DNA from: Promethearchaeota archaeon Loki_b32
Lineage (GTDB): Archaea; Asgardarchaeota; Lokiarchaeia; Sigyniarchaeales; SOKP01
Assembly: GCA_005223125.1 (NCBI GenBank)
Contig: NJBH01000020.1
Coordinates: 1 to 64,000, forward strand
Length of the DNA stretch: 64,000 nucleotides
Direction of reading: 5' to 3'
Positions 1,158 to 30,409 of this stretch are shown piece after piece. Each line of letters opens with the position of its first letter. Position 1 is the stretch's first letter. The position numbers were made by a program, and so were the translations under genes. The notes under the pieces were generated by a model. That model saw only the letters and a program-made list of their open reading frames with translations. It was not told the DNA's origin and made no database searches.

Positions 1158-1215
1158 TTTCTTTTATTAATTAAATTTCTATTTAGTAATTTCTTCAAAT
1201 CTTTTATAAAATTTA

Positions 1216-3664: not shown

Positions 3665-3879
3665 TTTTATTTAACTAGTCCAACTTGAGTTATATTATGA
3701 AATTATCTAGATCTAATTACAGTAAAATCACCTAATTCCTTATATTCGTCAAGTTTAACCATGATCATCTAATGCATCCCTTAAAAAGAGGTTATGCACA
3801 TTAATTTTCATATTTTTAGGTGTATTTTTTTGTGGTATTAACATTCATTTTTGTCAATAATCTATTTTGATTTTCTAAT

Positions 3880-4986
3880 TTACAGGTTACTACTTATCGC
3901 TTTTTCTATGTAATTAGTGAGATTTTCTTTATAATCTTCAGTAAGGTTATATTTAGCAGCCTCATTTAGAATTAGAAATCCAATTTCTTCTAGTTTTGAT
4001 AATGCATTGCCTAACTTTCTATTTGAATAAGGTAATAAACCCTCTTTCTTGATATTCCTAAGTTGATTATGTAAATATCCATACTTATGTTCCACTTTCT
4101 CTTCACTTTTGATATCAATATAGGCTTTGATAATAATATTAAAAATTTTTGTCCAATCCTCTTTTTCAATTACATCTTTAAGAACAGGGCTAAGCTCTGA
4201 TTCTACTTGTGGATCTTCATCAAGTAAAAATATTTCATTAAAACCTTCAACAATTTCTGTTTTGATTTTACCATTTTCTTCTGCTGCTGTAATAAACTTT
4301 GTAAAAGAATTAAATGTTTTTGCTTTATCATCAGGTCTTTGAACCATTGTTGCCCCCTTATAATCAAAATTTGGAGAACTTCGCATTAGATTATCAACCA
4401 CTCCAAATCGAGTGGTTTTACCTTTCTCCCTAGCAAGTTTTACTGACTCAATCAACCAATTTATTGCAGTATCAAAAAGAATTGCTTTTTCTTTCTTTTT
4501 TGGCTTGGTTTCCTTTGAAAAATCTCGAGCTTTATACATTTTGGAAAGTTCTTCAAGAGAAAGAAAATCATTAGCACTTAATAATAAGTGTTCACTTACA
4601 TTATGTGAATCTCCTATTATGATAACTTTTTTGCGTTCTGCTCTGAGTTCATTCACTAGAGATATGAAATCTTTATCACCAGTAAGAATTATAAAACAAT
4701 TAATATCTGGATATAATTGCGCAGTTACAAGACAATCAACAACAATTTTAACATCAACACTATTAGGTTTTCCCATGGATACTTGAATTGTATCAAATCC
4801 TAAACTATAAAGTGCTTGAATAATCTCTTTATTAATTCCTACCCAATTAGAATATACTTTTTTTATACGAGGATGACCTAGCGATTCAGAATATTTTATT
4901 AAAGCCTCTGCTAAGGGTACATTAATGCCTTTTGCTACAACTCTGACATTTTCATAATCCCAAAATATAGCGACTTCATCCATCAT
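3880..4986 (-). CDS. NYN-domain (LabA/DUF88, PIN-fold) RNase with C-terminal LOTUS/wHTH-like domains
   Basis: FWDYEN, NSVDVKI, TGDKDF motifs; GAGG SD upstream. Confidence 0.9.
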   Translation of the reverse strand: MMDEVAIFWDYENVRVVAKGINVPLAEALIKYSESLGHPRIKKVYSNWVGINKEIIQALYSLGFDTIQVSMGKPNSVDVKIVVDCLVTAQLYPDINCFIILTGDKDFISLVNELRAERKKVIIIGDSHNVSEHLLLSANDFLSLEELSKMYKARDFSKETKPKKKEKAILFDTAINWLIESVKLAREKGKTTRFGVVDNLMRSSPNFDYKGATMVQRPDDKAKTFNSFTKFITAAEENGKIKTEIVEGFNEIFLLDEDPQVESELSPVLKDVIEKEDWTKIFNIIIKAYIDIKSEEKVEHKYGYLHNQLRNIKKEGLLPYSNRKLGNALSKLEEIGFLILNEAAKYNLTEDYKENLTNYIEKAISSNL

Positions 4987-5136
4987 TTAAACCTCCTCCA
5001 AAAATTATAATTGAATATTTTTATCTTATTAAAATAGAGATTGATTGGATTTTTATATTTAATTCAAATTTTAATAGTTATTTAGGATGAATTATTCATC
5101 CTTCTTTTTTTTCGAATTATTTTTGTTTTTGTCTCT

Positions 5137-5376
5137 TTATTGAAATCGTCGATTAATGGATCTTTTTGGAAAAATGAATACTGTTGCTATTGAAATATAA
5201 GCAACTGAAATCAAATTTATTTCCAAAATTTGAATTGTAAAAATATAATATACCAATAAACCGCTACAAAAAGTTACTATAATAATCCTTACAAAATATA
5301 CTAATAATCTAATTTTTGGATTGAAATGAGAATTGAAATTCTCCTTATGAAATCTAGTGATAAATAATTTAAGCAT
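5137..5376 (-). CDS. Small hydrophobic hypothetical protein or fragment
   Basis: 79-aa ORF with two hydrophobic stretches. Confidence 0.3.
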   Translation of the reverse strand: MLKLFITRFHKENFNSHFNPKIRLLVYFVRIIIVTFCSGLLVYYIFTIQILEINLISVAYISIATVFIFPKRSINRRFQ

Positions 5377-5491
5377 TTGTGTTAAAATAGAAAAAACTAT
5401 AATAGCTAATAATTAAAATAAATTCCATTAAATAACTAATTCGTTTAGCAAAAAGGTAGTAAAAAGGTAAAATGGATTATTCTAAATCTCT

Positions 5492-6721
5492 TTAAAGAGA
5501 GTTAAATTGACCATTTTTATTTAAGATCTTCAAAAAATTAAAATTAGTATTATCAATGATTCTCTTCTTTCTTGATAATCTTGAAAAAGTTTCTCTATTA
5601 AGCCCTGTCTCTACTCTAACCGGATATGAATATAAATCTTTAAATTTCATTACTCCAACAGGGTCCTTTGTTTGAGCAATCATTATGGCAATACAACGTC
5701 TTTTTATATCTTCAGAATCTTTTAAAATGATTTCCATTATTTCAAAATAATTTTCTTGATAATCTATCCATTTGTCTAAAATTGTACTAATCGACTGAAT
5801 TTTATCTTCTAAATTATTAATACCAATAATTCTTCTAGGAAATTTATCTGTTATCCCTATAATAATAAGTCCTCCCTTCTTATTAGCAAATGCTGCTACT
5901 TTCTCACAAAAATCAATCTGTCTTTTCTTCTTTAAAGATTTTGGAGATTGCCATATATCAAGTGTCTCCTTAAAATCCCAATATTTACATTCTGTTTTAT
6001 CTATAATACTGCTAATAAGATCTCTCCAAAATGAATCATGATAAACATTTTCTAACATTTCATCAAAACGGATGACACCCGTAATATTATCTAATGATTC
6101 TAATTCTGTATTCTCAATAAAGATATATTCTTCCAAAATTTCTTGAGTATGATTATTTTTTTTTATAGGAAATCTCAGATCTCCACTTTCGCTAATAAAA
6201 TTATTTTGGATGAGGATTGTCCATACATCTTCTTTTTCATCATTATCAAAATCACCTGGTTTCCACCGATCGATAGCTTTAAAAAAATCTTTTTTCATTC
6301 GAAAATCTTTCGACAATATTAAGTAAATAAATGACATTGCTAATTCTATTCGCATAGATGTCTGAAGATCATTCTCAAAGACATCAACAATTTTATATTC
6401 CAATATTTTATTTTTCTCAAATAACTTAAAAAAATCTCTATATTTATGAAAAAACGAATTATTAATCAAATTATCATTAACTCGAATTCTTCCATAAGGT
6501 TCTTCAATGAGAAGCCCCACTTCACAAAGTTGATTTAAATCTTGCTCTAATTCCTCGCTAAAAGGTCCAAATGACCCACTTCTAAAAATATAATGTAAAT
6601 TCATTATTTTAGCCACCTGAAAGGCATAAATGATTTTCTGTATGTTGATCTTTCCATTAAATCCATCATAGTCTCTGAAGACTTTTAACAGTAAAGCCTG
6701 CCTAATTGTAAGTCTTATCAT
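5492..6721 (-). CDS. Fusion of a SocA/YwgA(DUF4065)-like wHTH domain and a Schlafen/AlbA_2 domain
   Basis: N-terminal IQKIIY...FGPFSEELEQDL; C-terminal ECKYWDFKE...AAFANKKGGLIIIGITD. Confidence 0.8.
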   Translation of the reverse strand: MIRLTIRQALLLKVFRDYDGFNGKINIQKIIYAFQVAKIMNLHYIFRSGSFGPFSEELEQDLNQLCEVGLLIEEPYGRIRVNDNLINNSFFHKYRDFFKLFEKNKILEYKIVDVFENDLQTSMRIELAMSFIYLILSKDFRMKKDFFKAIDRWKPGDFDNDEKEDVWTILIQNNFISESGDLRFPIKKNNHTQEILEEYIFIENTELESLDNITGVIRFDEMLENVYHDSFWRDLISSIIDKTECKYWDFKETLDIWQSPKSLKKKRQIDFCEKVAAFANKKGGLIIIGITDKFPRRIIGINNLEDKIQSISTILDKWIDYQENYFEIMEIILKDSEDIKRRCIAIMIAQTKDPVGVMKFKDLYSYPVRVETGLNRETFSRLSRKKRIIDNTNFNFLKILNKNGQFNSL

Positions 6722-6785
6722 TTGATACCTTCTTATTTACATTGTTGTCTACTAAAATATTTTTGAATATAAATATTAAAACACG

Positions 6786-6811
6786 TCACTTAATTTGTGA
6801 ATTTTAAGTGA
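6786..6811. promoter_or_regulatory. Perfect 8-bp inverted repeat upstream of the SocA-Schlafen gene (candidate operator)
   Basis: TCACTTAA-N10-TTAAGTGA. Confidence 0.4.
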
Positions 6812-6973
6812 TCAGTAGGAGAAATAAGCTTTTTTCAGATTGATTCTACGGTAGCACTAGTTAGAGTTTGATCCTGTTGGAGTTACCTTCTCTAACCATT
6901 TATGACATTTTGGAATAAAAAATATGTAAATCGAGGTAAAGAATATTTTGAAATAATTATCTTTTTAGAAGCT

Positions 6974-7225
6974 TTATTTATTATGTTTAATTAAAAAAGC
7001 TTTCACTTTCTCCAACAACTTCTCATTACATTCAGGATTGTGCCAATCCTCGCCATTCAGAAGCCCTTCTTCTTTAGCGATCAACTGAAGCCCTAAATGC
7101 GCAATTACACAGAAAGTATTACTGCGAAAATCACTATAATTTGGAACATTGCAAACTTTATCGAACGTTTGTTGGATTAAAGACCATCTAGCCTGTTTAA
7201 CCTCATCACTTTTAGCTGTCATCAA
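6974..7225 (-). CDS. Small hypothetical protein
   Basis: 83-aa ORF with globular composition. Confidence 0.65.
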   Translation of the reverse strand: MMTAKSDEVKQARWSLIQQTFDKVCNVPNYSDFRSNTFCVIAHLGLQLIAKEEGLLNGEDWHNPECNEKLLEKVKAFLIKHNK

Positions 7226-7310
7226 GTGAAATATATAAGATTTGGCAAATAAAAAGGAAATGAGAGTTCAAAATTATAATCTATCTAATAATATTGTTTT
7301 AGTACATATC

Positions 7311-7508
7311 TTAGGATATATATTTTAAGACAAGATATTCCGATAATTTAACCTTTTTAGAATTTTCTTCTGTTTCTTCAATTAATTCTTCAAGTCCATC
7401 CTTAATTAACTTACTTAGATTGTTAAGAGCGACATTTTGTAATTTCTTATATTGAACTGTGAGTTCTTGAAATGAATTCACAATTTCTACTTCTTCCTTA
7501 TCTTTCAT
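7311..7508 (-). CDS. Small acidic helical hypothetical protein (possibly truncated)
   Basis: 65 aa, GAGGT SD upstream of ATG. Confidence 0.5.
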   Translation of the reverse strand: MKDKEEVEIVNSFQELTVQYKKLQNVALNNLSKLIKDGLEELIEETEENSKKVKLSEYLVLKYIS

Positions 7509-7722
7509 TATGCTCTACCTCTATCTATATATTCTTCTGAGAGACCATATCAATATTGTCTTATCTTGCTTAATATTGATTGAACAATATAATTTTCTAA
7601 GTTAATTGCAGATAAATAATAATATATATAAGTAAATGTACTTAAACACATTTATAGGTTTTTAAAGTTAAATTTTTTTTACCTTAATAAAGTTAAATTA
7701 TTATTATGCGAGAGAGATAAAA

Positions 7723-8550
7723 ATGCCCAATATCAAATTTCTTGAAGAACACCCTCTTTATACTCAATTCCCATTTGAGGTTCCGGAGTACATTCATCAA
7801 TTAGAAAAAGTTAACATAAACATGCATTGCTCTAAATGTGATAATATCAGAACTTTTAATATGACAAATGATTATCGGGATAGTGAAGAACATGTACATC
7901 CTGATGTAGGTAATTCTTATGCGACTAAGAAAAATAAATATATTACTCTCGATTATCTATGTGCGGCTTGCAAAGTTTTTATGAGATTCTTTATCATAAA
8001 AATTGGGGAGGATCTAACATATATTCAAAAAATTGGGCAATATCCTCCTTTGGATATATCTATTCCCAAAGAACTTAAAAAAATTATTGATGAAGAATAT
8101 AAAGATTATTATAAAAAAGGTAAAAACTCAGAAAATTTCGGACATGGAATTGGGGCATATGTTTATTATAGGCGAATTATAGAAGGAATTATTAATGAGT
8201 TTATTGAAAAAATCCCATATTTTATGACTAATGAAGAGAAAGAAAAATATAAAGAACCACTAGATAGAGCTAAAAAAGAAAAAAATACAACAACTAAAAT
8301 TGAAATTATTAAAGATTTAGTACCTCCAATACTAATTCAGGGTAGATTTAATCCATTAAAAGCGCTACATGAAGCATTAAGTATAGGAATACATGTAGAA
8401 TCTGATTTATCATGCTTGGAAAATGCAAAGATTATTAGAAATAGTTTAGAGTTTATTGTAGAAATAATTTTCCGAGATGTTGAGAAAAGCAAGGAATATA
8501 TAGAAAGTATGGATAAAATAAAAAAAAGACTGAAAGAAAAATATAAATGA
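7723..8550 (+). CDS. Zinc-ribbon + DUF4145-like (HEPN-fold) protein
   Basis: CSKC..CAAC, GQYPP, GAYVYYRRIIE, LSIGIH. Confidence 0.65.
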   Translation: MPNIKFLEEHPLYTQFPFEVPEYIHQLEKVNINMHCSKCDNIRTFNMTNDYRDSEEHVHPDVGNSYATKKNKYITLDYLCAACKVFMRFFIIKIGEDLTYIQKIGQYPPLDISIPKELKKIIDEEYKDYYKKGKNSENFGHGIGAYVYYRRIIEGIINEFIEKIPYFMTNEEKEKYKEPLDRAKKEKNTTTKIEIIKDLVPPILIQGRFNPLKALHEALSIGIHVESDLSCLENAKIIRNSLEFIVEIIFRDVEKSKEYIESMDKIKKRLKEKYK

Positions 8551-8674
8551 AATAATATTAACTATCTAATTCCATTATTTGTTATAATTATTATATTTGG
8601 ATTTTGAATGTTTCTAACATCGAATATTTTTGCCTTATATCTAAATAAATTAATGAAAAAGCCTAATCAAAAAT

Positions 8675-8821
8675 TTAGGAGTAGAAGAAATTCAGATTCA
8701 TGTCATTCCAGAACTTAGACCGAAAAATGATGAGGAATTAATTGAATTTTTTAAAAAAAGTATTGAGGAGCAAATAAGACTAATAAATTATTTAGATGAA
8801 TTAAAAGATGGATTAAAATGA
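8675..8821 (+). pseudogene. Orphan 3' gene fragment
   Basis: Frame without a start codon reads LGVEEIQIHVIPELRPKNDEELIEFFKKSIEEQIRLINYLDELKDGLK*. Confidence 0.3.
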
Positions 8822-8916
8822 GTATTCAAGCACTATTAACTAGTTTAAAAGAACCCAGTATCCACGATTCTTAATATTTTTGTCTTATAATTGTATAGAA
8901 TACTCAAAATAATAAA

Positions 8917-9942
8917 TTATAATAATTCGTCTAAATCACTCCATCTTTCTTTGAACAATTTACTCTGAGTAGGATGTTTTATCAAGCCAAACATTCTATT
9001 CTTCTCATACTCTAAGATTGAAAAGATTTTCCGAACAAATAATGATTTTATATAATCTAACATAAACTTAATATAAAAACCTAAATTTTTCTCATCAGTT
9101 TGAGTTAGTTTTTGCCAAGTAAAGATTTTATACCTACTTAAATGGCTAAATAGAAAACTAAGTATATAGAAAACCAATAAATTTATATCTTCAAGATCTT
9201 TCACTTTTATCTCTTTTTGTGTTGGAAAATCATCTAAAAAATTCCCAATAGTCTTATTTGATAATCCAATATGTAATTTTGTAAAAAAAATCCGAATCAA
9301 ATCCAATAATGAATATTCAATTTTTTTAAAAAAATAATCTTGTACAGGAAATCCTAGCACAAAAAAGAATCTCTGTGTTGCACCTTCTACTAGTAGTTCA
9401 ATGTTATAATTTAAAAGATCTTCAATATTAGAAGAACTATCTATATTGTTAAATTCCTTGGGATTAATACCATGGTGTCTGAATTTTCCTCGGATAGATT
9501 CAATTTTTTTGTTTTCAGCAGAAAAGTTGAAATGTATATATGAAAAATAAGTTGCTAATTGTTCAATACCGTAAAATAATAAAACTGGTTGATTCAAAAA
9601 AATAACATTGTTGACACTTTTAATATAATTATAACCTGATTTTCCAATATATGATATTATACGGCTTACAAGATCTAATTTTGATGTGTTGTCATATTTT
9701 ATATTTTGATAGTCAAATTCTGGTTTAATATTTGAAAAAAAATTCTTCACAAACTTTTCTGATAATGGAAAATATTCACAATATTCTAATGATTGTAATT
9801 TTTGAATATTTTCTAAATATCTTTTAATTGTTGAGGGTAAAAACATTATTTCAATATCATATTCAGAAAATATCTTAAATTCATCATTATGAAAAGTGTC
9901 ACCTGTTCCGAAAGTAGTCCCTCTAAATCTTCTCAACTGCAT
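8917..9942 (-). CDS. YaaC-family (HEPN-like) protein
   Basis: QPVLLFYG, HHGI, LSHLSRY...W motifs. Confidence 0.75.
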   Translation of the reverse strand: MQLRRFRGTTFGTGDTFHNDEFKIFSEYDIEIMFLPSTIKRYLENIQKLQSLEYCEYFPLSEKFVKNFFSNIKPEFDYQNIKYDNTSKLDLVSRIISYIGKSGYNYIKSVNNVIFLNQPVLLFYGIEQLATYFSYIHFNFSAENKKIESIRGKFRHHGINPKEFNNIDSSSNIEDLLNYNIELLVEGATQRFFFVLGFPVQDYFFKKIEYSLLDLIRIFFTKLHIGLSNKTIGNFLDDFPTQKEIKVKDLEDINLLVFYILSFLFSHLSRYKIFTWQKLTQTDEKNLGFYIKFMLDYIKSLFVRKIFSILEYEKNRMFGLIKHPTQSKLFKERWSDLDELL

Positions 9943-10044
9943 TCATTTCACTTTATTAATCTTTAATAACTATTTTTTTGTCTAATATCTAAATTAAGTT
10001 TGTTCTTATTTAAATGAAATTCTCAAACTGCTATAATTTAATGA

Positions 10045-10090
10045 AAGAGGAGACTCCTATCAGCTCGACCTAATAACAAGGTCCTAAACT
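10045..10090 (-). repeat. Right copy of the imperfect inverted repeat (partner at 173-217); overlaps the PIN gene 3' end
   Basis: Reverse complement agtttaGGACCTTGttattaggtcgaGCTGATAGGAGTCtcctctt. Confidence 0.55.
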
Positions 10091-10840
10091 ATTAATCAAA
10101 TCAGCAACAGTTAACCCTTTTTCTTCTGCTTCTTTAATTGTCATTTTTTCAGATATCATGGATTTTTCATTATTTTCTAAAAGTATTGTCTCTTTTTCTT
10201 CCTCTTTCATTAAGTCTGGGAACTCTGGAAACTCTTCAGCAATAAATTCATCTAAACTAAGATCATTCTCAATGGATAATTTATACTTGTTATCTTTATT
10301 TTTAAAAATTAGTTTTAAATCAGTTAATTTATTTTTTCTTGTTGGTTGAGTTTTACTTGGGTTGAAAATTGTTTTATATTCCTCATCTAGCCAATAAATA
10401 GTATTAATTCCTAAAACATCAGCTTGAAAGTAAGGCGTGTTATCTCCTGTAACAAAATATACCTCATCATCAGGATTGTCTTCTTTAAAGACGAGGATTT
10501 CAGCTATAATCTTGCAATCAGATTCATTTTTATCTAATTTTTCTGCCCATTCAGGTTTTAAAGAACTCCATTTTGTTGGAAAAAATGAAATATTTAAAGA
10601 AATACCTTCTTTAAATTCGACATCCTTTAATTCTTTTAATTTATTCTGTATGTTTCTGGCTTTTTTTTCGTATCTTTTTAAATTGTCCAACTCCTTATTA
10701 ACCATATATGGTACTACAATTACAATTTCATCATCATTCTGAGTTTCCTCAAATAAAATTCTCCAATCTATTTCTGTAAAGTTTCTACAGTGTAAAAAAA
10801 CATTTGTATCAAGAAAAATGTATTTAGTCATAACCATCAC
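10070..10840 (-). CDS. PIN-domain protein (PIN_4/Swt1-like), probably C-terminally truncated
   Basis: FLDTNVFLH, ELDNLK, SDCKII, VTGD; ORF ends inside the repeat. Confidence 0.85.
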   Translation of the reverse strand: MMVMTKYIFLDTNVFLHCRNFTEIDWRILFEETQNDDEIVIVVPYMVNKELDNLKRYEKKARNIQNKLKELKDVEFKEGISLNISFFPTKWSSLKPEWAEKLDKNESDCKIIAEILVFKEDNPDDEVYFVTGDNTPYFQADVLGINTIYWLDEEYKTIFNPSKTQPTRKNKLTDLKLIFKNKDNKYKLSIENDLSLDEFIAEEFPEFPDLMKEEEKETILLENNEKSMISEKMTIKEAEEKGLTVADLINSLGPCY

Positions 10841-11222
10841 TCTTTACTTAATTGTATATAGATATATAATTATTGTTATAATTCCCTTAATAGTGAAAAG
10901 TCCTTGAACCTAAATCTTAGTATTAAATTACTACTTTTGTCTTAACCTATAATAAATGCAACAGAAATATATTTTTTCCCTTTTCTCCCCGATAATTGCT
11001 GTCTCCCTCCCCGTGGTACCCTCCTAAGGTTACTAAGGAAATTATTAGGTTTTTTTAAAAACCTTAAAGATTCAATTGTTAATTGATAATCTACTAAATA
11101 TTTGTTTCGGAAATGATGATGATTAACAAATTTATTCCGATAAATATATATATCGAAAATATCCTTAAAATTTTGAAAGAAACTACCAAAATATTAATGC
11201 ACTCAATAAAACTGATATATTT

Positions 11223-11522
11223 ATGGACCCTGATAAGAAGAATGAAAAAAAATTTGATCCTTTAAATAAAAATGTAAAAGAATATATAAAGTTCTTATCA
11301 GAAGAAGAGGGATTAGATTATGAGGATTTTCTAAATAAATATCAAGAAGCCCCGTTTTTTATTGAATTTAATCAATTAATTAAGCAATATAATAATTCTG
11401 AGAATAAGGCTGAATTTGAAAACAAGATTAGAGCTTTTGAATATAGAATGAAATATAAATATCCAGAAATGTTGAAGACACTACAAGATGCATGTAAGCC
11501 TAATAGTAAACAAATACTCTAA
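11223..11522 (+). CDS. Small hypothetical protein
   Basis: 99-aa ORF; palindrome CGATA-N8-TATCG at 11138-11155 upstream. Confidence 0.65.
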   Translation: MDPDKKNEKKFDPLNKNVKEYIKFLSEEEGLDYEDFLNKYQEAPFFIEFNQLIKQYNNSENKAEFENKIRAFEYRMKYKYPEMLKTLQDACKPNSKQIL

Positions 11523-11622
11523 GGTCTTCAATTATAACATTTATGAATAAAGATTTTTATAAAAATTTTATAAATTTAAAGACTGTTTTTATATCCTCGT
11601 TTGAGATTAATTCAATAAAATA

Positions 11623-11674
11623 TTTATATATATTAAGTTTATTAATAATATAAAGGTTTACTAAATATATAAAC
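11623..11674 (+). promoter_or_regulatory. TATA box plus two tandem palindromic operator candidates
   Basis: TTTATATA at 11623-11630, then GTTTA-N9-TAAAG (11637-11655) and GTTTA-N9-TAAAC (11656-11674). Confidence 0.55.
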
Positions 11675-11688
11675 TTGTTTTAAAAAAT

Positions 11689-12357
11689 ATGAATGAATTA
11701 ATTTGCCATATTGCTCCCTTAGGAAAAAAGACGGATTGGATAAAAGAAGGACTTTTGTATTTTGATTGGAATTATTTAATCATTTTAATAAAGTCTCAAA
11801 AAGAATATATTGATTTAGCTAATAAGCTAAAAGAAGAACTTAATCCAAGTTTTAAAATCGAAGATGATAGAAAATTAGATCTTAGAATTAAAAAGGAAAT
11901 TGAGATTATTGCTATTAAAAATCGAGATATCATAAATTTTATCAAAATCTTTAAAGAAAAAGCAAAAGAATTCAAAAAATTAGGATATAAAATTTACTTT
12001 AACGCAACTTCAGGATTAGAACTTTGGAAATTTGCAGCTTATTTCATAGGAACAACTGAAAATTTAATTGATAATATTTATTATATCCCAAAGGATTCGA
12101 ATTTAAGCGAGCCTATTAAACCATTAGAAATTTATATGCCTGTTGTTTTATCAAACCCTCTAAAAAATCTTTTCTCTACCTTGAACGAGCAAATAATTTC
12201 GCAAAAAAGGTTAGTGGAGGAAACTGGATTTAGCAAAGGATTAATTTCAAGGTATCTCAATAATCTTCGAGAAATGGGATTAATTGAAATCTCAAAAAAG
12301 AAAAAAGGAAAGGAGAGGTTTTTTGAAATTACAGAGAAAGGAAAATGGTATTTGTAA
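11689..12357 (+). CDS. CARF-like + winged-helix regulator (Csa3/DUF6293-like)
   Basis: CHIAPLG and IYFNATSG CARF-type motifs; C-terminal wHTH SQKRLVEETGFSKGLISRYLNNL. Confidence 0.8.
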   Translation: MNELICHIAPLGKKTDWIKEGLLYFDWNYLIILIKSQKEYIDLANKLKEELNPSFKIEDDRKLDLRIKKEIEIIAIKNRDIINFIKIFKEKAKEFKKLGYKIYFNATSGLELWKFAAYFIGTTENLIDNIYYIPKDSNLSEPIKPLEIYMPVVLSNPLKNLFSTLNEQIISQKRLVEETGFSKGLISRYLNNLREMGLIEISKKKKGKERFFEITEKGKWYL

Positions 12358-12383
12358 TATAAAATTATTGAGGTGAAAGAATA

Positions 12384-13532
12384 TTGGAATCTATTGTAAA
12401 ATTCTTTTCAAGATATTATAATTTCGTTAAAACCTTTAAGAAGTACTATAAAAACTTTGAAAAAGTTGAAATTTTTGATAAAATACTTGAAAAATATAAA
12501 GATCAAATTCAAACTTTCCTAAAGAAATATAATCTTGAAGAAAGATTCATACAAGCAATAGATAATGATGCTCCAGCAGATATTATTTTCATTTTTGTAG
12601 AACTAATTATAAATGCGCTAAGAGATTTTGATTTAAGAAAATTCTTGCTTGAGATGTGGATTACAAGTGTTAGGCATTTTGAAGAATTGATACCGAATAT
12701 AGTACTCCCCATCTTAGATCTTGATGTTTATTACGAAATCAAATCGTTAATTGAAGAAGCTGCTTCTGTTGATGCTGAAAGTGTAATCAAGGTTTTATGG
12801 TCTTATTTCAGAATAATCTCTGAGAAGCCGACTATATTAGAAATAAATAGTTCATTACTCGTGAATAAAGAAAAAAAATGGAAAAACATTGAAATCGTCC
12901 GCTCTTTAGGAATTGATAAATCCATTGATAAAATAATAACCATTGATAAGTTAATTGAAGAGGCGGGTGAACAAGAATTTAAAATATACTTCTTTGATTG
13001 GACATTAAAATTTGGATACCTAATTGAAGCACATATCAAAAATATACTATTATTTATTTTAAATTTATATTATATTAAAAATGGAGTCCCCTTTGAACCT
13101 GATTATAATGATGATTGTAGCATTGGCGAAGTACTATACGCTTTTAAAAATGAAAACATCAATCTAAATAGAATATTAAAACACTACCGCAATGCAATTT
13201 TTCATTCAAATTTTTTCTTAAATTACGATCTCGATATAGAAAAGAGAGAAATTTGTATAAGAGTGTTTATATCTTCAGAATCAAAAAATAGAAAAGTTCC
13301 TAAAATCTATAAATCCAAAATATCTGAATTTATGTCTTATTATCATAGAATGATAATGTTGTCTAATACATTTGATATAGTATTAGCTACTGTTTTCGCA
13401 AAAGATTTTTTAGTTGAAAAAATTGAAAATGCTTTCGATGATATTGATGAAATTTTAGACGAAATACCAAAGCTTTCTGCTGAGGAAATGAAGAAATTAT
13501 TTGATGAATATCGTAATAAAGCTCTAAATTAA
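12384..13532 (+). CDS. HEPN-domain protein (putative RNase)
   Basis: YLIEAHIK and RNAIFH (Rx4H); GAGGTGA SD before a TTG start. Confidence 0.65.
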   Translation: MESIVKFFSRYYNFVKTFKKYYKNFEKVEIFDKILEKYKDQIQTFLKKYNLEERFIQAIDNDAPADIIFIFVELIINALRDFDLRKFLLEMWITSVRHFEELIPNIVLPILDLDVYYEIKSLIEEAASVDAESVIKVLWSYFRIISEKPTILEINSSLLVNKEKKWKNIEIVRSLGIDKSIDKIITIDKLIEEAGEQEFKIYFFDWTLKFGYLIEAHIKNILLFILNLYYIKNGVPFEPDYNDDCSIGEVLYAFKNENINLNRILKHYRNAIFHSNFFLNYDLDIEKREICIRVFISSESKNRKVPKIYKSKISEFMSYYHRMIMLSNTFDIVLATVFAKDFLVEKIENAFDDIDEILDEIPKLSAEEMKKLFDEYRNKALN

Positions 13533-13895
13533 GAAGTGAAAGATATTTCTTCCTACGATTTATAATGAATGGGATATTCCTGAAATATTGAGATATATGG
13601 ATCTGGCTCTCTGGGATGAATCTGCCAAAGAGCGTTTTTTGAGTTTAGATAAGCAATAAAAGGATATTTTAGAAAAAAAGTTGTTGAGTTTATCCAAATT
13701 TTTTTCTCTATTTTCTCCCTCCCATTAAAAAGAGAATGAAAATAGACTCAAAATAGTATCATAATCTATAAAAAACATATTTCCCTCAATTAAAAGATTC
13801 TTTTGAGAAAGTATATTTCTGACGTGAAAATTGATTTTACCATTTGTAGCAACAAAAAAACGTATTAATTTTTCATTTCCATAATTTTTCACCAA

Positions 13896-16800
13896 ATGAT
13901 TCATACTTTTACCACTAATTTAGACGGAATTGAGAAAAAGACAGTTAAAAATATGGTTAATGATTTTGCTTCTTCACAATTTTCGACCCTTATGTTTGAA
14001 ATTTCAGAGGGTCTGGCTAGCGGAAATTTACGTCTGAACGATATTGGGAAATTCATTGGCACTCTAGCATCATTTTCCTCAGATCCGGAGTGGGTAATTA
14101 AAATATTTCTTAAAGAGATTTTTAGTAAACGTGATAGGCTGAATCAATTCAGAGATGGAGCTAGTGGTGAATATTTGAAGATGCCGTCGAAATATACATT
14201 TCTATTTTCTGTATCAGATTGGGTTACTCAAAATGCTAAGTTACAGAATTATAATTATAAAGGAACCGCTATAGATTCTGTGGTTAATTATCTGAATTCT
14301 TTAACCGATGCAGAATTTTCAAGCGAAATAAAATCTCTTGCGAACAGATATTATCGTAGTAAATATCTCTTAAATCCAAATTTCTTTAAGAGTCTCAAAG
14401 CTTTGTTTACAGATAGGGACTTTCTTAGATATATAGTTAGAGAAAGTGAGGTTGGTACTGGTTATCAACTTCTATGGCGTGATTCTGTTGGTGCAATGAT
14501 CGAGGCAATGAATAATGGTGAGTCAATCAAATTGTCAAGAAGCATGATTCCTACAACTGTCAGAGGCAATCCAGTATATATTATAGAGGGAGGTATATGG
14601 AAGAGGCTATCAGACTTAAGCAATAGTTATGACTTTGGAGCAGCCCATCTTTATGTATATAGGAAGCTGTCAGACGGATCGAGACAAATAGGAATTGCTA
14701 GAATCGATAATATTGAGAATGATTTGTCGAATATTGTAGATACAAACGGAGAGATTGTTGAATTATATGAAGGGTTCCCCGTATCAGATTCAAGAGTCAT
14801 TAAAGGGGTGTGGTTAAGCAATTCTATGGGAAATCTTTTGATCAGTGAAGTAGCCCTTGACGATTTCTCAATTCGTTCTGATCAAAATAGTAATTGGTTT
14901 GAAGAGTTTATTGAGATTGAGAATGGTGAGTTAAAGAGTAAATTATTCATGAGTTATATAATTGCATCTGGCTCAAAATTGACTTGTTTTTTACAAGATA
15001 CTTCTCTTAAATTCGAAGATTATGAGCCATATAAAAAAATATTTCCAGATTTACCTTTCTCCCAGGAGAGGGGAGTTAAGTTTATAAGAGAAGGCAGGAT
15101 TGTTGTAGATTTAAGTAGAAACACAGAAATTACAGAGCCAAAGGTTAATGCTCTTTATAATATCTTTTTCCAAATAACAGAGACTAGTGTTGGCCGTACA
15201 CATGTAGGAGTTCCTCGCATAATTTTCTCAGAATCGGCTCTAAATTTACATTCATCAGATAAGCGGTATACATTCAAACTTTATGAGAATATCTTGAAGA
15301 ACATTAGACTAAAGGCATCAGGTGCTTTATTTGATTCATCTAGCCCCATTTACAATTCTCAGAATAAACCCCACTATGATTCTGCGGACTCTAATTATTG
15401 GCTTAATATGATAACACGATTCTCTATTTCTGGGGATTCAATATCCTTAACCAAGGTTTCCAAGAAGGAATTCTTTAATGCGTGGTTGCTCCTAATCCAA
15501 AATGAGTTATTAGTAAAGAATGGGCCAAATTGGGAGATAGATCCTAACAGTGCCTTCTATGATCTTAAATATCTGGTCTTCACTAATGGAGATCCGAATC
15601 TCCCTGAGAAGTTTACCGACAACGCAGATTTTCAGGGTGATGAGACAGTTCAAGGATTTCCTAATGATTTTGAAATTGTTGAGAAATTAGAAATAATATT
15701 ACATGATATGTTTGGCTTTACTGGATATGCTTCTTTGTTATTCGGGCTTATGACTTTTTCCCAGACAGAATTTGGAGGGTTTAGAAGTGATTTTGTACTT
15801 CTAAGTAGAGGAGATCAACAAAAATTAAGGCGAGATTTTAATATCTGGACACATGATACCCAATACCTTGTTTCAAAAAAAGAGCGAGGATTATATTATA
15901 TGTCTATTTTCCTTAATGGATTTGAGCATAACTTAGGAGGTACTAAGATTACTTCTAGAGGACCAATCACTGATGTGCTTGCAAACTTAAACCCTGAGCG
16001 CGAAGCGTTTCTATATGAATATTTTGAGGAGTATCATCCAATAGATTCCCTTGATTTCGAAGATGCTACAAATTTCTTTATGGAAGGTTATCAATCTCCG
16101 TCCCAGAATAAGATTGATAGCATGAATTTAATGGGTAGAAAAAAACTTTACAATTACCTCGTTGAGAAATTTGAATTTATAGTTAATTTAATTTTTAGCC
16201 CATCTCATTTGGATGGTGGTGCATTTACTAAATATATTCAAAATCCAGATAATCCAGACAACTGGAAATATAGGACACTGAAACAAGGAAGAAGTTATAT
16301 AAGAATGTCGATTGATAATCCCATAAGCGAGAATAACATTGTTGATGATCTAAGGAAAATTTTGATGTCGGGCAGAAATGGATATATCAGTTTGAATCCT
16401 CCTGAGAGTGGAACCACTACTGCAGTTTCATCTAACACGTTATTACAGCATATGCTTGTACCAATTTCTTATAATGAATTGGTCAAGTATCTTTCCTATG
16501 ACAATTTAGGCACCTCAGCTAATGATGTTATATATACCTTGTTTATGACTTTTGACACCAACTCCCATACCATGCCCTCTGGGTATAACGTTAATCCTAA
16601 AGTGTTTTGGCAGTCGCGAGAGGGTGATGCAATAATAGAGCATGCTGTTGACGTTTACAATGAAATTATAAGTATGTTTAGTGAGGAAGTTCTTGGATCC
16701 TCATACTATGAAAGACAATTCTCAATAAAATTATATTCAGATAAAGGAAGAGGTATATATATGGATTCTATATCTGATAGATTGAAATCATACGGCATGA

Positions 16801-17219
16801 CTGACTCCACTATAGATTTCCATCCGAATGATCAGACCGAGTTAAGGAACGCAATTGCTAGTATGGTATTCTATCTTTATTTTCTCCCAGACGCCTTTGC
16901 CGTTATAAAGGTGCATAATAATAATTTTCTTTTTGCGGACGCTTTTTCCCTTAAGACACCAGAATATGTATCTGATACTGACTATTCTGTGCCTATTGGG
17001 GGAGAATTTATCTGGGATTCGAATCTGGGTGATTTAACGAGAGAAAATTATAATGCCCATATTAATAATTTCAATGGATTTAGCCATCAAGATATCCGAT
17101 CTTTCTTCCAGAGAAGAGATCTTGAGAGTAATTTTGAAGTTCTTTTAGATTTATTTAATAAGTTGTTTAGAACTGAGATTAACCGTGGGATTAATATAAT
17201 GAATTTTTTTGAATTTTAA
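13896..17219 (+). CDS. Large hypothetical protein, probably the C-terminal part of a larger protein
   Basis: 1107-aa ORF, visibly higher GC than its flanks, no SD or signal peptide, no recognisable domain. Confidence 0.75.
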   Translation: MIHTFTTNLDGIEKKTVKNMVNDFASSQFSTLMFEISEGLASGNLRLNDIGKFIGTLASFSSDPEWVIKIFLKEIFSKRDRLNQFRDGASGEYLKMPSKYTFLFSVSDWVTQNAKLQNYNYKGTAIDSVVNYLNSLTDAEFSSEIKSLANRYYRSKYLLNPNFFKSLKALFTDRDFLRYIVRESEVGTGYQLLWRDSVGAMIEAMNNGESIKLSRSMIPTTVRGNPVYIIEGGIWKRLSDLSNSYDFGAAHLYVYRKLSDGSRQIGIARIDNIENDLSNIVDTNGEIVELYEGFPVSDSRVIKGVWLSNSMGNLLISEVALDDFSIRSDQNSNWFEEFIEIENGELKSKLFMSYIIASGSKLTCFLQDTSLKFEDYEPYKKIFPDLPFSQERGVKFIREGRIVVDLSRNTEITEPKVNALYNIFFQITETSVGRTHVGVPRIIFSESALNLHSSDKRYTFKLYENILKNIRLKASGALFDSSSPIYNSQNKPHYDSADSNYWLNMITRFSISGDSISLTKVSKKEFFNAWLLLIQNELLVKNGPNWEIDPNSAFYDLKYLVFTNGDPNLPEKFTDNADFQGDETVQGFPNDFEIVEKLEIILHDMFGFTGYASLLFGLMTFSQTEFGGFRSDFVLLSRGDQQKLRRDFNIWTHDTQYLVSKKERGLYYMSIFLNGFEHNLGGTKITSRGPITDVLANLNPEREAFLYEYFEEYHPIDSLDFEDATNFFMEGYQSPSQNKIDSMNLMGRKKLYNYLVEKFEFIVNLIFSPSHLDGGAFTKYIQNPDNPDNWKYRTLKQGRSYIRMSIDNPISENNIVDDLRKILMSGRNGYISLNPPESGTTTAVSSNTLLQHMLVPISYNELVKYLSYDNLGTSANDVIYTLFMTFDTNSHTMPSGYNVNPKVFWQSREGDAIIEHAVDVYNEIISMFSEEVLGSSYYERQFSIKLYSDKGRGIYMDSISDRLKSYGMTDSTIDFHPNDQTELRNAIASMVFYLYFLPDAFAVIKVHNNNFLFADAFSLKTPEYVSDTDYSVPIGGEFIWDSNLGDLTRENYNAHINNFNGFSHQDIRSFFQRRDLESNFEVLLDLFNKLFRTEINRGINIMNFFEF

Positions 17220-18403
17220 TTTTTTTTATTTTTTGTAATTCTTTTTAGGAACACATCAGTTCCTTTTCTTCGAAGTGTTTTGATTAAGTAATTATCTTTT
17301 ATCATTGAATCCATTAGATATAAGGCATTAAGGTTTTTTAGATATTTAATCGAATTGGGAAGGGTTTCAATAAGAGTCTCACTTAAATCCAAGCTTTCTA
17401 GTGAAGTCATGTATCCAATAGAGTCTGGAATAGATTTAATGGAATTTGCTCCAGATATAAAATCTTTTAAAGCCTTAAGCTCTCCAATAGAGTTTGGTAA
17501 GAGCTTTATTTTATTATCGGCAATTACGAGCCGTTCTAAGCGCGTGAGGTTACCAATAGAATTAGGCAATTCTTCTATTTGATTGTAGCCAACATTAAGA
17601 TGTTTTAACTTCTTTAAATTCTCAATTGATTTAGGTATCTCTCGTAATAGATTTCTGGACAGATCAAGATACTCTAGTTCTTTAAAATCCCAAAACCAAT
17701 CGGGAAGTGTCTCCATCAGATTTCCACTTAATGATAATCCAATTAATGACTTAATATTTTTAATTAATACAGGAATTTCTTTAAGCTTGACATTTTTTAA
17801 TATTAGCCAACTAATTTTATTATTTTTTAATACATAGCCTCTACCAATAATATTATCCTTTGTCCTAATTTCCATTTCTTTCTGGATAATCCGTTCCAAC
17901 TCAAGAATAAGGTCCGATTCGGGTATTAAGCTGAGGATCATTTCTTTTGACAAATATTTTAAATACCCTTCTTTAATAAGAAATCTTTGCGTGTTCTCGT
18001 TTCCAGCTTGAAATCTCTTTCCAATCTCTTCTTTAAACACTTTTTTAGCAAATGCATCTCCGACCTCTGACAATTTTTTTAAGAGAGGGAACGCTAAATT
18101 GGAATGAAGTAATCTAGTATCGTAGTTGTTTTCCGCCCAAACCTGTATATTTGAACAATGTGCCCAGAACTCTACTTCAGGAGGAATCTGGAAATGGGAA
18201 CTGTTATCTCTCTCTAATGATTTATCTAGTTTTTCAGCTGCTTCATCAATCGATTCTAGTTCCTTATATGCGTCAATTTGCTCGATTGGAATAGTTATTA
18301 ACAAGAATTTGCATTGACGGAACATTTGATTCTTGACAAATATCTCTGTCTTGTTATCCACTAATTTCAATGTAATGAATTCATTTACCTTAAATTCTTT
18401 CAT
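17216..18403 (-). CDS. Leucine-rich repeat protein with conserved MKEFKVN...EFWAHCSN N-terminal domain
   Basis: About eight LxxLxLxxNxL/IxxLP repeats; stop codon overlaps that of the convergent ORF (TTAA). Confidence 0.92.
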   Translation of the reverse strand: MKEFKVNEFITLKLVDNKTEIFVKNQMFRQCKFLLITIPIEQIDAYKELESIDEAAEKLDKSLERDNSSHFQIPPEVEFWAHCSNIQVWAENNYDTRLLHSNLAFPLLKKLSEVGDAFAKKVFKEEIGKRFQAGNENTQRFLIKEGYLKYLSKEMILSLIPESDLILELERIIQKEMEIRTKDNIIGRGYVLKNNKISWLILKNVKLKEIPVLIKNIKSLIGLSLSGNLMETLPDWFWDFKELEYLDLSRNLLREIPKSIENLKKLKHLNVGYNQIEELPNSIGNLTRLERLVIADNKIKLLPNSIGELKALKDFISGANSIKSIPDSIGYMTSLESLDLSETLIETLPNSIKYLKNLNALYLMDSMIKDNYLIKTLRRKGTDVFLKRITKNKKN

Positions 18404-18580
18404 TTTTTCTGCGTTTAGTGTTGTTTTTGTCTACTATTATATATGAATAGCTCGATATTTAAATTTAAAGGGTGAATTAGTATTTACTTATGGGTAAAAT
18501 TAATAAGGATGATTTAGATTTTAGCAATCATATATAGTTTTTTGACAATCGCCCCAAATGATAAGAGTAATAAGCTAAGT

Positions 18581-19165
18581 TTAAAAGAAACTAGAGATCT
18601 TAGCAATCGTATATAGTTTTTTAACAAGAATTTTAAAGGCTTCCGTGACTCCATGGCCTGTCAATGCACTCGTTTTATAATACCCAACGAATCTATTTTC
18701 TTTTGCTAATTGCTCCACATTAGCGTCAGCAGTCGGTAAGCCTGGATTAGACACTAAAGTTGCCTCATCAACTAAATCCACTTTATTTCCAAATAAAACT
18801 AGTGGTATATTTCCACAATGTTTTTTAAGATCATCAAGCCATCTGGGAACATGCTCATAGGATTGTGGTTGTTCGGGATCGTGAGAGAAAACGATAATTG
18901 CTCCACTGCTTCCTATATAAAACCTTTGTCGTAATGCTTGAAATTGATCTTGCCCTGCAATATCCCAAAGAAACAGTTCAACTTTCTCTCCATCAATTTC
19001 TTCTTCATACTTAGAAAATTGAGTTCCTAGGGTTGATATATACTCCTTTTGAAAGGATCCTTGTGTATATTTTTTAATTAGGGATGTTTTTCCTACTGCG
19101 CCATCACCGATCACAGTGATCTTAAACCCGTATCCTTTTTCATCATCACTCATTTTGGTTATCAA
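18581..19165 (-). CDS. Small Ras-superfamily (Rab-like) GTPase
   Basis: GDGAVGKT, WDIAGQ, NKVD, SAL; likely start ATG at 19153. Confidence 0.95.
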   Translation of the reverse strand: MITKMSDDEKGYGFKITVIGDGAVGKTSLIKKYTQGSFQKEYISTLGTQFSKYEEEIDGEKVELFLWDIAGQDQFQALRQRFYIGSSGAIIVFSHDPEQPQSYEHVPRWLDDLKKHCGNIPLVLFGNKVDLVDEATLVSNPGLPTADANVEQLAKENRFVGYYKTSALTGHGVTEAFKILVKKLYTIAKISSFF

Positions 19166-27337: not shown

Positions 27338-27460
27338 ACTTCACTCACTGACATATAATTTATAATCTTATATTATTTTTTTTTATTTTTAGAGAATCTT
27401 GAATCGGAGATTAAACAAAAATAATGTTACTTAAATGAAAAATAAATTCTTCTGTATTAA

Positions 27461-27481
27461 AAAAATTGGAGTCCGATTTTT
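27461..27481. promoter_or_regulatory. Palindromic operator candidate, copy 1
   Basis: AAAAATTGGA-G-TCCGATTTTT; near-identical copy at 30858-30878. Confidence 0.6.
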
Positions 27482-27730
27482 AAATTATTCGAAAATGAAT
27501 TCTTAAATTTAATTGAGGTTTCTGAAAAGTTTTGATTTTCTCTTGTTGCAATAAATCCCCTAAAAATTCTTTTAATTTATTATAATATCTTCTTATCTTG
27601 CAATTTATTATCAGATTTTTGTTATACATGATTTGTACCTCATTTTTTTTAAGACTCTATTATTATGGTATCTGTTACTGAAATCCATTTTTCTAAATAG
27701 GTATAATCACATCTATCACACATAACCACA

Positions 27731-28057
27731 TCAAAAGATTAGATATACAGTAACATAAAAAGGTACAGGAGTAGAAAAAAGGTCAATTTCTATTTCAGCT
27801 TTAATCCAGTTGCTTGGTTTGTCTGTGAAATCAAAGTGAAAATATGCTTCAGTTTCAGAAACATAATCAGAAGTCATAACATAAAGAAATTGAGCATATC
27901 CATAATTAGATGTTGGGTTGTCTTCATTTATATATGAATCTGCATCAGCCGTTATATATTTTTCTTGTTCAGCATATGCAGGAGGAACGCTTAAGATTAA
28001 AGAAACAAAAAAAAGACCTAATATCAATATACTTATATTTTTTTTTCTCATTCGCAT
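27731..28057 (-). pseudogene. Truncated secreted DNRLRE/CBM96-domain protein
   Basis: Signal peptide (PAYA), ADADSYINEDNPTSNYG, YFHFDF; stops mid-domain. Confidence 0.65.
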
Positions 28058-28386
28058 TTCCTATTCTTATTAAATTCTCATATTATGATATTAACTATTC
28101 ATAACGAAATAAATAATTTAGAAAAACTGGATCGTTTTAATTTCTATTGATGGTAATTTAAACCTTCTTATAAATTTTAAGTTAATTTATCAATAATAAT
28201 TAGATTCTTAACCGACAAATAATCGACATTATTTAACCATTCAAAATTCAATACTAAATCTTCACTGTCCTCTTAATTATTAAGGCGATACTTCATTTGT
28301 TCTTTAAATTAAGACTTTAAAAACAGGGCAATGGAGTCAAAAGAAGTATTAATCGCATATAATGTTGAGTTGAGAAGAATTTTTAA

Positions 28387-28923
28387 GGTTCGTTATGGAA
28401 TTCCAAAAAACCTTTTTATGACCTTAGAAATGAAGTAGAGTTCAAGAAAGTTTCTGATAAGGTCTTATATCAACATCATATAAGATATATTAAGGAATTA
28501 ACTGATTCTCTAGAATTAATATTATTAGGAAAGATGCATCCTGTATTAGGATGGCTGGAGCCATTAAAGCCACCAGAATATTCCCAAGTGATGAGGGATT
28601 TCAGAGATGACTTTGAATCAATTAAACCGTTTAGGGATTGGAACTCTCACTTAAAAGAAACTTATAATCAGCGGATTAGAGAGATTGTTAAGAGTTGGAG
28701 AGCTAATAAAGAGATTCCTTCGTTAGGAATTACGCAAAAATGGATCAAAGATGAAGAGAGTAAATCAAAGACCTATGAAGTAGCGCTTTTAGATGGTCGA
28801 ATTATTGGAGAGGTGAATGTTCTATCCCGCGAGCAGTATCGAGGAGTTGAATTCAGAAATTTATCCATTCGTGAATTTATCGATTACATTATTAACCATA
28901 TAGCAGATAAATTAGGGATATAG
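28387..28923 (+). CDS. Hypothetical protein fragment (frame open from 28387; ATG at 28534)
   Basis: Frame extends 49 codons upstream of the ATG; a one-base frameshift would join it to the ATG at 28331. Confidence 0.55.
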   Translation, partial: GSLWNSKKPFYDLRNEVEFKKVSDKVLYQHHIRYIKELTDSLELILLGKMHPVLGWLEPLKPPEYSQVMRDFRDDFESIKPFRDWNSHLKETYNQRIREIVKSWRANKEIPSLGITQKWIKDEESKSKTYEVALLDGRIIGEVNVLSREQYRGVEFRNLSIREFIDYIINHIADKLGI

Positions 28924-28964
28924 TTTACAAATAATAATCTATGATTTTTTTCAAATTTATATTT

Positions 28965-30310
28965 TTATTTTAATATTGTTACTTTTTCCGAAAATGTTGG
29001 TATTTTTTCTATCGGATTCCCTACTATCTTCAGCATTTTTAAATATTTAAGCTGTGTCAGATGCTCCGGTATCTCGTTTAACTGGTTATTATCCAAGTTC
29101 AACCATTCTAGATATTTTAAATTAACTATTTCTTTAGGTATTTCAGATATTGAATTACCACTTAAATTAAGTTCTTTTAATTTATTTAAATTAAAGATAC
29201 AAGAAGGAATTTCAATTAGTTTATTATTATCAAAGTATAACTCCTCTAATTTTTCTAAGTTATTTATATTATTTGGAATATTAGATATGTAATTATTCTC
29301 AAACATAATACATTTTAGATTTTTTAAGGATGAAATTATTGAAGGAAATTCAGGAAATTCATTATCCGATAATATGATACATTCTAAATTTTCCAATTTA
29401 CTAATAGATCCAGGCAGTGAGGTTAAAAGATTCCCATCAAGACCTAAGAATAATAAATTTTCTATCTCTCCTATTGAGTCTGGAATTGTTTTTAGTTTAT
29501 TATTACTTAGCCTTAAGTTAACCAGGTTTTTTACTTTGCTGACACAAACCGGTATATAAGTAAGTCCTATGTTATCGAGTGCCAATTTCCAAATTTCATT
29601 ATCACCTTCTTCTGAATGGAAAAAAGGTCCCTTATGACTCGTATCTTCACTATACGGTAAGAATCTCCCTAAATGATGCTCTAATTCTTTGATTACTTCT
29701 AGGTCGTGCGGGTCATGTGAGTATTTTACTTCTAACCTCTCGTAGTTACCTAAATACCCCCCCCTCCCGAACTTTCCGCCTCAAGTTCAATAATTCGCCT
29801 AAGTTGATTCTCAGTTAATTTTTCCTTCATTGCCACAAATGTTATCTCATAATCATACGGCGTGAAATAGAAATAGGGATAGTTTGCATTGACTAAACTC
29901 CAAATAGTAGGGAAAAACCCAGAGTTCATTTTTCTAATTATTTCTTTTTTAAGTACTTTTTTTGCTATAGGATCTCCTACGTCTACAAGCTTCTTCAATA
30001 GAGAAAAAGCAAGAGCACTATCCAGTAAGTTCGTATTATAATCATTCTCTGCCCATACTTCCAAGCTCGAACAATGCCCCCAAAATTCTTCTTCGGGAGT
30101 TAAGCTGTTAGAGGGCTCGACATCTAAAGTACTCATCTTTTCGATTATTTCATCAATAGATTTCATATTTTCTAAGGCGGTAATAATGTTTATCGGGATT
30201 TCGATTGATAACGCCTTACAGTGCCTAAACTTTTCTCCAACGACATATATTATCGTCTCGCCGTCTTCTAGTTTCAATGTTATAAATTTATTGATTTTAA
30301 ATTCCTTTAT
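28965..30310 (-). pseudogene. LRR protein paralog split by a frameshift in a G8 tract
   Basis: ORFs 29750-30277 (EFWGHCS domain) and 28965-29585 (LRRs) join without stops if C8 at 29757-29764 becomes C9; aligned start is ATA at 30310 with GGGGG upstream. Confidence 0.85.
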
Positions 30311-30409
30311 TTTTATTCCCCCTATTCTTAGCTGTTATATTTATTATATTTCTATTAGAAATTTAAATCTTATTACTAACATAGTGTAGTGATTTATATT
30401 TAATAATAT

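Follow-up and report, generated by a model that had tools for sequence, protein, structure and literature searches.

Convergent leucine-rich repeat gene pairs in a Loki-type Asgard genome as apparent remnants of giant proteins with exchangeable tips

Why should two different open reading frames (ORFs) on one archaeal contig each end tail-to-tail with a gene for a leucine-rich repeat (LRR) protein? The contig is NJBH01000020.1 of Promethearchaeota archaeon Loki_b32 (assembly GCA_005223125.1, 4.1 Mb, 95.5% complete; here genome G000, contig C26), and its first 64,000 nucleotides were analyzed, referred to below as the window. In pair 1, ORF1 (13896 to 17219, plus strand; 1,107 amino acids [aa]; guanine-plus-cytosine [GC] content, 0.344) shares the TTAA at 17216 to 17219 with the stop of a minus-strand LRR gene (17216 to 18403) of 395 aa, made up of a ~155-aa N-terminal domain (17930 to 18403; the N-domain), a linker, and about seven LRRs. 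In pair 2, ORF2 (28390 to 28923, plus strand; 177 codons) lies 41 bp from the end, at 28965, of a second minus-strand LRR gene (28965 to 30310), and the GC content is 0.367, compared to about 0.29 for the contig. An initial annotation had read these pairs as cassettes of a polymorphic conflict system in which orphan effector tips meet LRR immunity or receptor genes. The arrangement it described, including the stop overlap, the gap, and the higher GC content, was confirmed, as was the N-domain common to the LRR genes (51% identical, with strong Pfam LRR matches in both genes). We believe, with a probability of roughly 0.55, that the ORFs trace back to giant proteins that would work like contact-dependent polymorphic toxins with exchangeable tips, and that the window pairs are acquired antidote genes with hitch-hiking tip fragments.

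Neither plus-strand ORF proved to be an orphan. The C-terminal half of a 2,220-aa protein (P0001) matched ORF1 with 42% identity over 99% of the length of ORF1, and the ends of 9,240- and 14,473-aa open frames in two other genera matched it as well. ORF1 has an in-frame ATG, contrary to the annotated lack of a proper 5' end, but its homology begins at residue 6 to 16, midway within these far longer proteins. ORF2 is 33 to 35% identical to the tips of three relatives, one of them a 13,858-aa giant (L055; the others are L048 and L059). It carries an HNH-like motif, H-H-I-x11-L-x6-H, at about 28474 to 28539, whose three His residues are invariant among these tips; no Pfam match was found for ORF2, and its HNH assignment is by motif. 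Its only ATG, at 28534, is one codon before the last His of the motif, and therefore an ATG-started product would lack the motif. Full-length homologs of the same size as either ORF were not found; as the initial annotation had proposed they might, both matched the C termini of giants. The two share no sequence with each other, as annotated, but both are 5'-truncated tails of one giant membrane-anchored protein family in Promethearchaeota (Loki-type Asgard).

Members of this family are about 9,000 to 20,000 residues long. Before the tip they share a conserved region of ~430 aa (alignments A1 and A2), present in 54 of the 161 genomes of the class and 52 of the 134 of the family and forming 230 protein clusters at 50% identity; frames with this region reach 20,619 aa. 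The longest (L071, on G084:C13) ends in a papain-like Cys-His-Asp motif, as judged by eye. The full-length architecture was taken from one examined example, the 14,473-aa giant. Its first 510 aa contain 13 hydrophobic segments, making an N-terminal multi-pass membrane anchor, and it has a LamG domain and an acidic stalk of >10,000 aa. Two Gly/Ala-rich hydrophobic stretches lie near residue 12,000, followed by the conserved region and a charge-neutral tail. The anchor and stalk are absent from the window remnants. The exchangeable tails, about 590 to 1,950 aa in length, belong to many classes that are unrelated to one another; the longest, the long-tail class (1,700 to 1,950 aa), includes ORF1 as its last ~1,100 aa.

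Exchange of the tips is visible in closely related proteins. Pairs that are 88 to 95% identical over the 430-aa pre-tip region could not be matched by BLAST over their last 350 aa, and identity falls sharply at the transition. Within one genome, a 13,771-aa giant with a GIY-YIG-like tip (L046) is accompanied by an orphan (L048) that is 92% identical to it up to a tip of the ORF2 class. Near-identical bodies with unrelated tips are the hallmark of polymorphic toxins, and the family shows it. Several tips resemble nucleases: Pfam matched LAGLIDADG_3 (E, 8e-7) and, weakly, PBECR1 (E, 0.004); GIY-YIG and PD-(D/E)xK-like motifs were seen by eye; BECR motifs also occurred; and a strict HNH-like motif occurred in 16 of 73 tails, including ORF2, compared to 1.6% in shuffled sequences. 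Reading the LAGLIDADG, GIY-YIG, and HNH tips as homing endonucleases was rejected, as this leaves the RNase tips and the dedicated partners unexplained. Some tips are preceded by a Peptidase_S24-like (S24/S26-like) domain (e.g., in L075 and in L054 at 9895 to 13686), a candidate self-cleavage module for tip release.

No catalytic motif was found in the tail represented by ORF1. ORF1 is multi-domain, and its predicted model had a mean local confidence (pLDDT) of 79, rising to a pLDDT of 91 and a predicted template modeling score (pTM) of 0.89 for the last domain. Pfam gave no match to ORF1, and the whole model found no fold match in PDB (searched with Foldseek) or in the VIA wide, viral, or Atlas libraries. 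The last domain alone had no clear structural match (best VIA Z score, 4.4; the middle domains were not searched singly), an ESM Atlas feature search returned nothing for ORF1, and hhalign showed no internal repeats. With the query used, the tip domain had only one weak, probably spurious match outside one Loki-type family. The absence of fold matches to a model does not prove a new fold. Because this confident fold has no known match and the class has no catalytic signature, ORF1 is at most a putative effector, and the long tail may be a poison of undefined type, a carrier, or an identity tag. In three relatives (G108, L102, and L103), an RNase-like tip with its own small partner has been appended after the ORF1-class domain, and the convergent LRR gene is retained wherever the contig extends to its position. 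Since the RNase tip brings its own partner while the LRR gene stays, the LRR protein belongs with the long tail itself.

We then consider how regularly such tails meet LRR genes. The gene right behind the tail encodes LRRs or an N-domain in 43 of 69 family tails, against a background of 39 such genes among 3,497 ORFs (1.1%) in this genome. At loci chosen independently, by the last domain of ORF1, an LRR or N-domain gene lies within two genes in 27 of 29. Most of the remaining tails are followed by small genes in tip-specific families, including non-LRR families tied to RNase, HNH, and PD-(D/E)xK-like tips. The convergent orientation seen in both window pairs is typical of the long-tail class, where 23 of 27 loci with a partner are convergent and 4 are co-directional, but the annotated rule does not extend to short tails, most of whose pairs are co-directional. 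The partners also vary with the tips, as the initial annotation had anticipated. When LRR partners were compared across genomes without their N-domains, 20 of 32 had their best match in a partner linked to a related tip, compared to 2.0 expected, and both window pairs obey this rule. The C-terminal halves nearest to that of partner 1 come mostly from genes that accompany its tip class in other genomes, and the closest cross-genome LRR match of partner 2 is the partner of L048, which has a tip of the ORF2 class. In two loci (L058 and L094), LRRs appear to be fused to a small partner domain of the sort that usually accompanies HNH-like tips, which suggests that LRRs can play an accessory role next to a specific immunity domain.

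Among N-domains, identity stays at 50 to 60% even where the tails have fallen to about 20%, and C, H, S, W, and Y residues of the N-domain are invariant. No sequence match was found in Pfam, NCBIfam, or PDB, an ESM Atlas feature search returned only unnamed Promethearchaeota clusters, and nearly all relatives are labeled Promethearchaeota. The domain occurs in 127 of the 134 family genomes, mostly without a tip, and it is fused to a Rab-like GTPase, occurs twice in a 1,942-aa protein, and is found in large LRR proteins (fusion proteins of this genome: C18:51485-52624, C71:16472-22300, C44:15570-19808, and C37:181761-184448). Thus, the N-domain is not specific to the tip system and does not mark it. 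From sequence, it looks like a promiscuous adaptor; an F-box-like role is one idea. When the neighbors of N-domain genes were tabulated, they were random for about 75% of the genes but not random in the direction from tip to LRR gene.

Both window copies lack the conserved pre-tip arm. Recombination onto a constant body would need this arm, which is present elsewhere in the family (e.g., L046/L048). Copy 2 is also disabled on both sides, with no tip start before the motif and a frameshifted partner. The N-domain half of that partner (29750 to 30310) and its LRR half (28965 to 29780) are out of frame with each other at a run of eight C's (29757 to 29764), and an ATA stands at the position of the Met of its paralogs; of the two annotated LRR genes, therefore, gene 1 is intact and gene 2 is not. 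The C8 run is possibly a slippage switch or simple decay. Remnants in relatives have ragged break points, with frames of 119 to >2,000 aa, usually beside full-length partner genes; those of 119 to 343 aa stand beside full-length N-domain-LRR genes. Several ORFs of ~2,200 aa had suggested a fixed cassette boundary, which was rejected for the tip class as a whole because frame lengths are ragged. An orthologous locus as the cause of the pairing was rejected because the flanks differ everywhere. Since same-strand order and the recombination arm both fail, we do not file the window pairs as active cassettes, as they had been annotated. They are remnants, not recombination-ready cassettes.

Remnants of this type move. 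The segment from 13944 to 18516 recurs at 86% DNA identity in a metagenome contig (L101), which has a longer 5' part and different sequence on either flank; the same block thus sits at different sites in close relatives. The shared unit takes in 113 bp upstream of the start of LRR gene 1, which is likely its own promoter. A sigma-70 promoter scan 5' of ORF1 gave chance-level results with a model ill-suited to archaea. Compared to L101, the ratio of nonsynonymous to synonymous substitution rates (dN/dS) was 0.26 for ORF1 and 0.19 for LRR gene 1. Over the window segment from 13896 to 18403, synonymous divergence from L101 decreases in both genes as their common 3' junction is approached, in the tip from ~1.3 to 0.12 and in the LRR gene from 0.58 to 0.015. 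Given this fall, the junction looks as if it had been recently exchanged.

Both pairs occupy sites that are empty in congeners. At site 1, an EF-2-like gene stands beside or close to a small-GTPase gene, without the pair, in 26 of 27 congeners. In this genome, that spot is taken by pair 1 and an AT-rich accessory and defense island (510 to 13532) with DarG-like, NYN, PIN, YaaC-like, and CARF-wHTH genes and an unclassified 382-aa protein. The edge of the unit is marked by a 36-bp diverged duplicate (18513 to 18548, minus strand) of the 3' end of the neighboring GTPase gene, 91% identical to the window's own gene end and up to 97% identical to those of congeners, which is likely an integration scar. 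In another congener (L126, on G067:C102), an independent N-domain gene is convergent to the 3' end of the same GTPase gene. In this genome, the EF-2-like gene is on contig C3; behind it come a duplicate of its own 3' end, 84% identical, and then an island that runs to the contig end (segments of interest, C3 75888 to 78350 and 82456 to 82551, and window 18557 to 18600). The end of C3 and the start of C26 may belong together, as parts of a single large island located at a hot spot for insertion where gene ends are duplicated.

Pair 2 is carried by an insert of ~3 kb (27340 to 30416, with a fuzzy left edge at about 27340 to 27400) that none of the 29 examined congener loci has at this site. The host gene, a membrane/zinc-ribbon gene (30410 to 30793, minus strand), is cut just after its first CxxC and is about 34 codons shorter than in congeners. 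Within the insert lies a fragment of a secreted CBM96-domain protein (27731 to 28057, minus strand; Pfam CBM96 E, 2e-7, profile positions 3 to 60 of 164). A 99.8%-identical contig extends 626 bases beyond the copy 2 break at 28411 with sequence unlike that of the window. Just left of the break, the segment from 28134 to 28400 has many diverged copies in metagenome contigs and is single-copy in this genome. An insertion sequence or miniature inverted-repeat transposable element at the break points was considered and rejected, with no multicopy element in this genome or the examined loci, the segment from 28134 to 28400 looking multicopy in the metagenome contigs only.

Beyond the window, remnants paired with a partner lie on contigs C2, C21, and C71 (with convergent N-domain partners) and on C45 and C56, other remnants lie on C47 and C10, and about eight family remnants are present in this assembly. 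No intact giant of the family was found in it, and a scan of a set of genome contigs with ORF1 gave no matches. Contig C23 encodes a secreted PKD-like giant of 6,006 aa whose C terminus is hydrophobic (L005; 13181 to 31201), followed by several co-oriented membrane genes; it was rejected as a family member by BLAST and profile.

To account for these observations, we propose the following scheme. A giant would display its tail on a neighboring cell and deliver it there. The LRR half of the partner would bind and neutralize the cognate tail, with the N-domain as a generic adaptor, so that the LRR partner probably protects against its tip. Because the partner faces the giant, it would have its own promoter and stay functional when a fragment of the locus moves. 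Horizontal transfer, together with illegitimate or homology-assisted recombination, could bring such a fragment into another chromosome. Selection would then maintain the antidote, and the tail fragment would merely be carried along, eroding from the 5' end. Pair 1 would represent an antidote acquired in this way whose tail fragment is still open, and pair 2 one that is decaying or has been switched by slippage.

Several observations weigh against this scheme. Physical linkage by itself can make partners co-vary with tips, and related genomes do not count as independent cases. P0001 has no LRR partner, and two loci (L173 and L175) have a different small gene in its place. Of about 20 N-domain genes in this genome, only 5 face a tip remnant and about 15 have no tip. 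The N-domain tree is not grouped by tip class (7 changes, with 120 of 500 shuffles as low). No delivery route across a target membrane was identified. The annotated notion of variable effector tips fits the family, which swaps tips with many nuclease motifs, but not ORF1, as its class has no recognizable toxin domain and no invariant catalytic residue. Given the appended RNase tips, the long tail might be a carrier rather than a poison.

The alternative that survives best, although we consider it unlikely, takes the LRR genes to be unrelated to the tips. The N-domain-LRR gene would be a generic, mobile, lineage-wide adaptor that became linked to a long-tail giant once or a few times, and the pairs would be neutral debris of a decaying giant locus of 30 to 45 kb. 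The spread of the N-domain through nearly all family genomes, many without a giant, its fusions to a Rab-like GTPase and other domains, the tree unclustered by tip class, and the unlinked N-domain gene at site 1 of L126 all fit this view. However, the linkage is seen in several genera, at many different sites, and in either orientation, even between tails that are just 20 to 25% identical. Unrelated short tails, too, have LRR-only partners behind them, and the apparent fusions in L058 and L094 join LRRs to a tip-specific domain. Debris should not repeatedly lose the 5' part of the tip yet spare the partner.

It is quite unlikely, in our estimation, that the long tail is a nontoxic identity tag or delivery module for kin recognition, with the N-domain-LRR protein as an intracellular receptor that signals through its N-domain, like an innate immune receptor, instead of inhibiting. 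The lack of a catalytic signature in the long tail speaks for it, and a conserved adaptor joined to a variable LRR sensor has the right form. The appended RNase tips, which bring their own small partner while the LRR gene stays, also agree. Against it, related tails borne by this scaffold contain nuclease motifs and are likewise accompanied by LRR partners, and no effector or signaling domain was found on the 395-aa partner. The weakest alternative, a selfish toxin-antitoxin unit whose truncated tail is made in the cytoplasm from a new ATG and is toxic there, could draw on the 1,107 open codons, ATG, and dN/dS of ORF1 and on movement of the unit as a block, but we consider it highly improbable, as truncation lengths are ragged, copy 2 has neither a start before its motif nor an unshifted partner, the dN/dS may date from the intact giant, and one related contig (88% identity) among the matches listed has single-base losses in the tip, a weak point.

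Compared to known systems, the proposed antidote scheme is closest to bacterial polymorphic toxins (CdiA-CT/CdiI, Rhs, and MafB), for which Tox-HNH, Tox-URI, and BECR tips and Imm-LRR have been listed (Zhang et al. 2012, PMC3482391). Both have a constant 5' body, an exchangeable C-terminal tip with an adjoining tip-specific partner, orphan tip-partner pairs, and nuclease tips. With Imm-LRR, the likeness is positional only, in that an LRR protein is encoded beside a toxin tip. The Asgard scaffold, a multi-pass anchor with a stalk of 9,000 to 20,000 aa, is not a listed trafficking type (no FilH or RHS repeats were found in the one giant scanned), its tails are 600 to 1,950 aa, and its long tail and N-domain match no family. 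The long-tail partner is convergent instead of following the toxin in one operon, and the orphans lie dispersed along the chromosome, ragged at the 5' end and often without a recombination arm. Polyimmunity loci and acquired immunity genes (PMC3482391) likewise accumulate without a matching active toxin, but as tandem co-oriented arrays free of toxin cassettes, as opposed to dispersed single genes dragging tip fragments.

Among archaea, polymorphic toxin systems have been predicted (Makarova et al. 2019, as cited in PMC8416519). VARTIG of Thermococcales (PMC8416519) is also a large surface protein with a variable C terminus and matched downstream genes, but it has Ig domains and no toxin domains. 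The aloposons of Heimdallarchaeum, with their giant Otus and Ephialtes proteins (PMC8813620), likewise tie giant Asgard genes to mobile DNA and truncated fragments. By their description, however, these giants are 3,000 to 6,000 aa long, stand in tandem at tRNA sites, and come with a ParA module, and the parts of that account compared here mention neither toxins nor LRRs. We found no paper on this giant/LRR family, and overlap with the catalog of Makarova et al. 2019 is possible.

Asgard archaea are the closest prokaryotic relatives of eukaryotes. To our knowledge, antagonism between their cells is essentially undescribed. The present finding brings two hitherto unexplained features of these genomes, their giant surface proteins and the expansion of LRR genes that have a private N-domain, together in a single conflict system that can be tested, and it accounts for LRR genes at scattered, scarred sites. 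Its weight is tempered, as the window copies are remnants and their function is proposed from comparative analysis. It names small cognate pairs, a tail and an LRR protein of 300 to 450 aa, fit for expression and assay, and a last domain of ORF1 that is confidently folded in the model without a structural match. A broader picture, which we offer as tentative and on balance unlikely, is that Loki-type Asgard fight kin with some of the largest known proteins. The ORF1-class tail would then be a ~1,400-aa effector of undescribed fold, countered by lineage-wide modular receptors (an N-domain adaptor and a variable LRR sensor) that cells would acquire horizontally and keep as a scattered immune repertoire numbering up to about 20 genes. 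If true, this repertoire of LRR receptors would be an archaeal parallel to the LRR immune receptors of eukaryotes.

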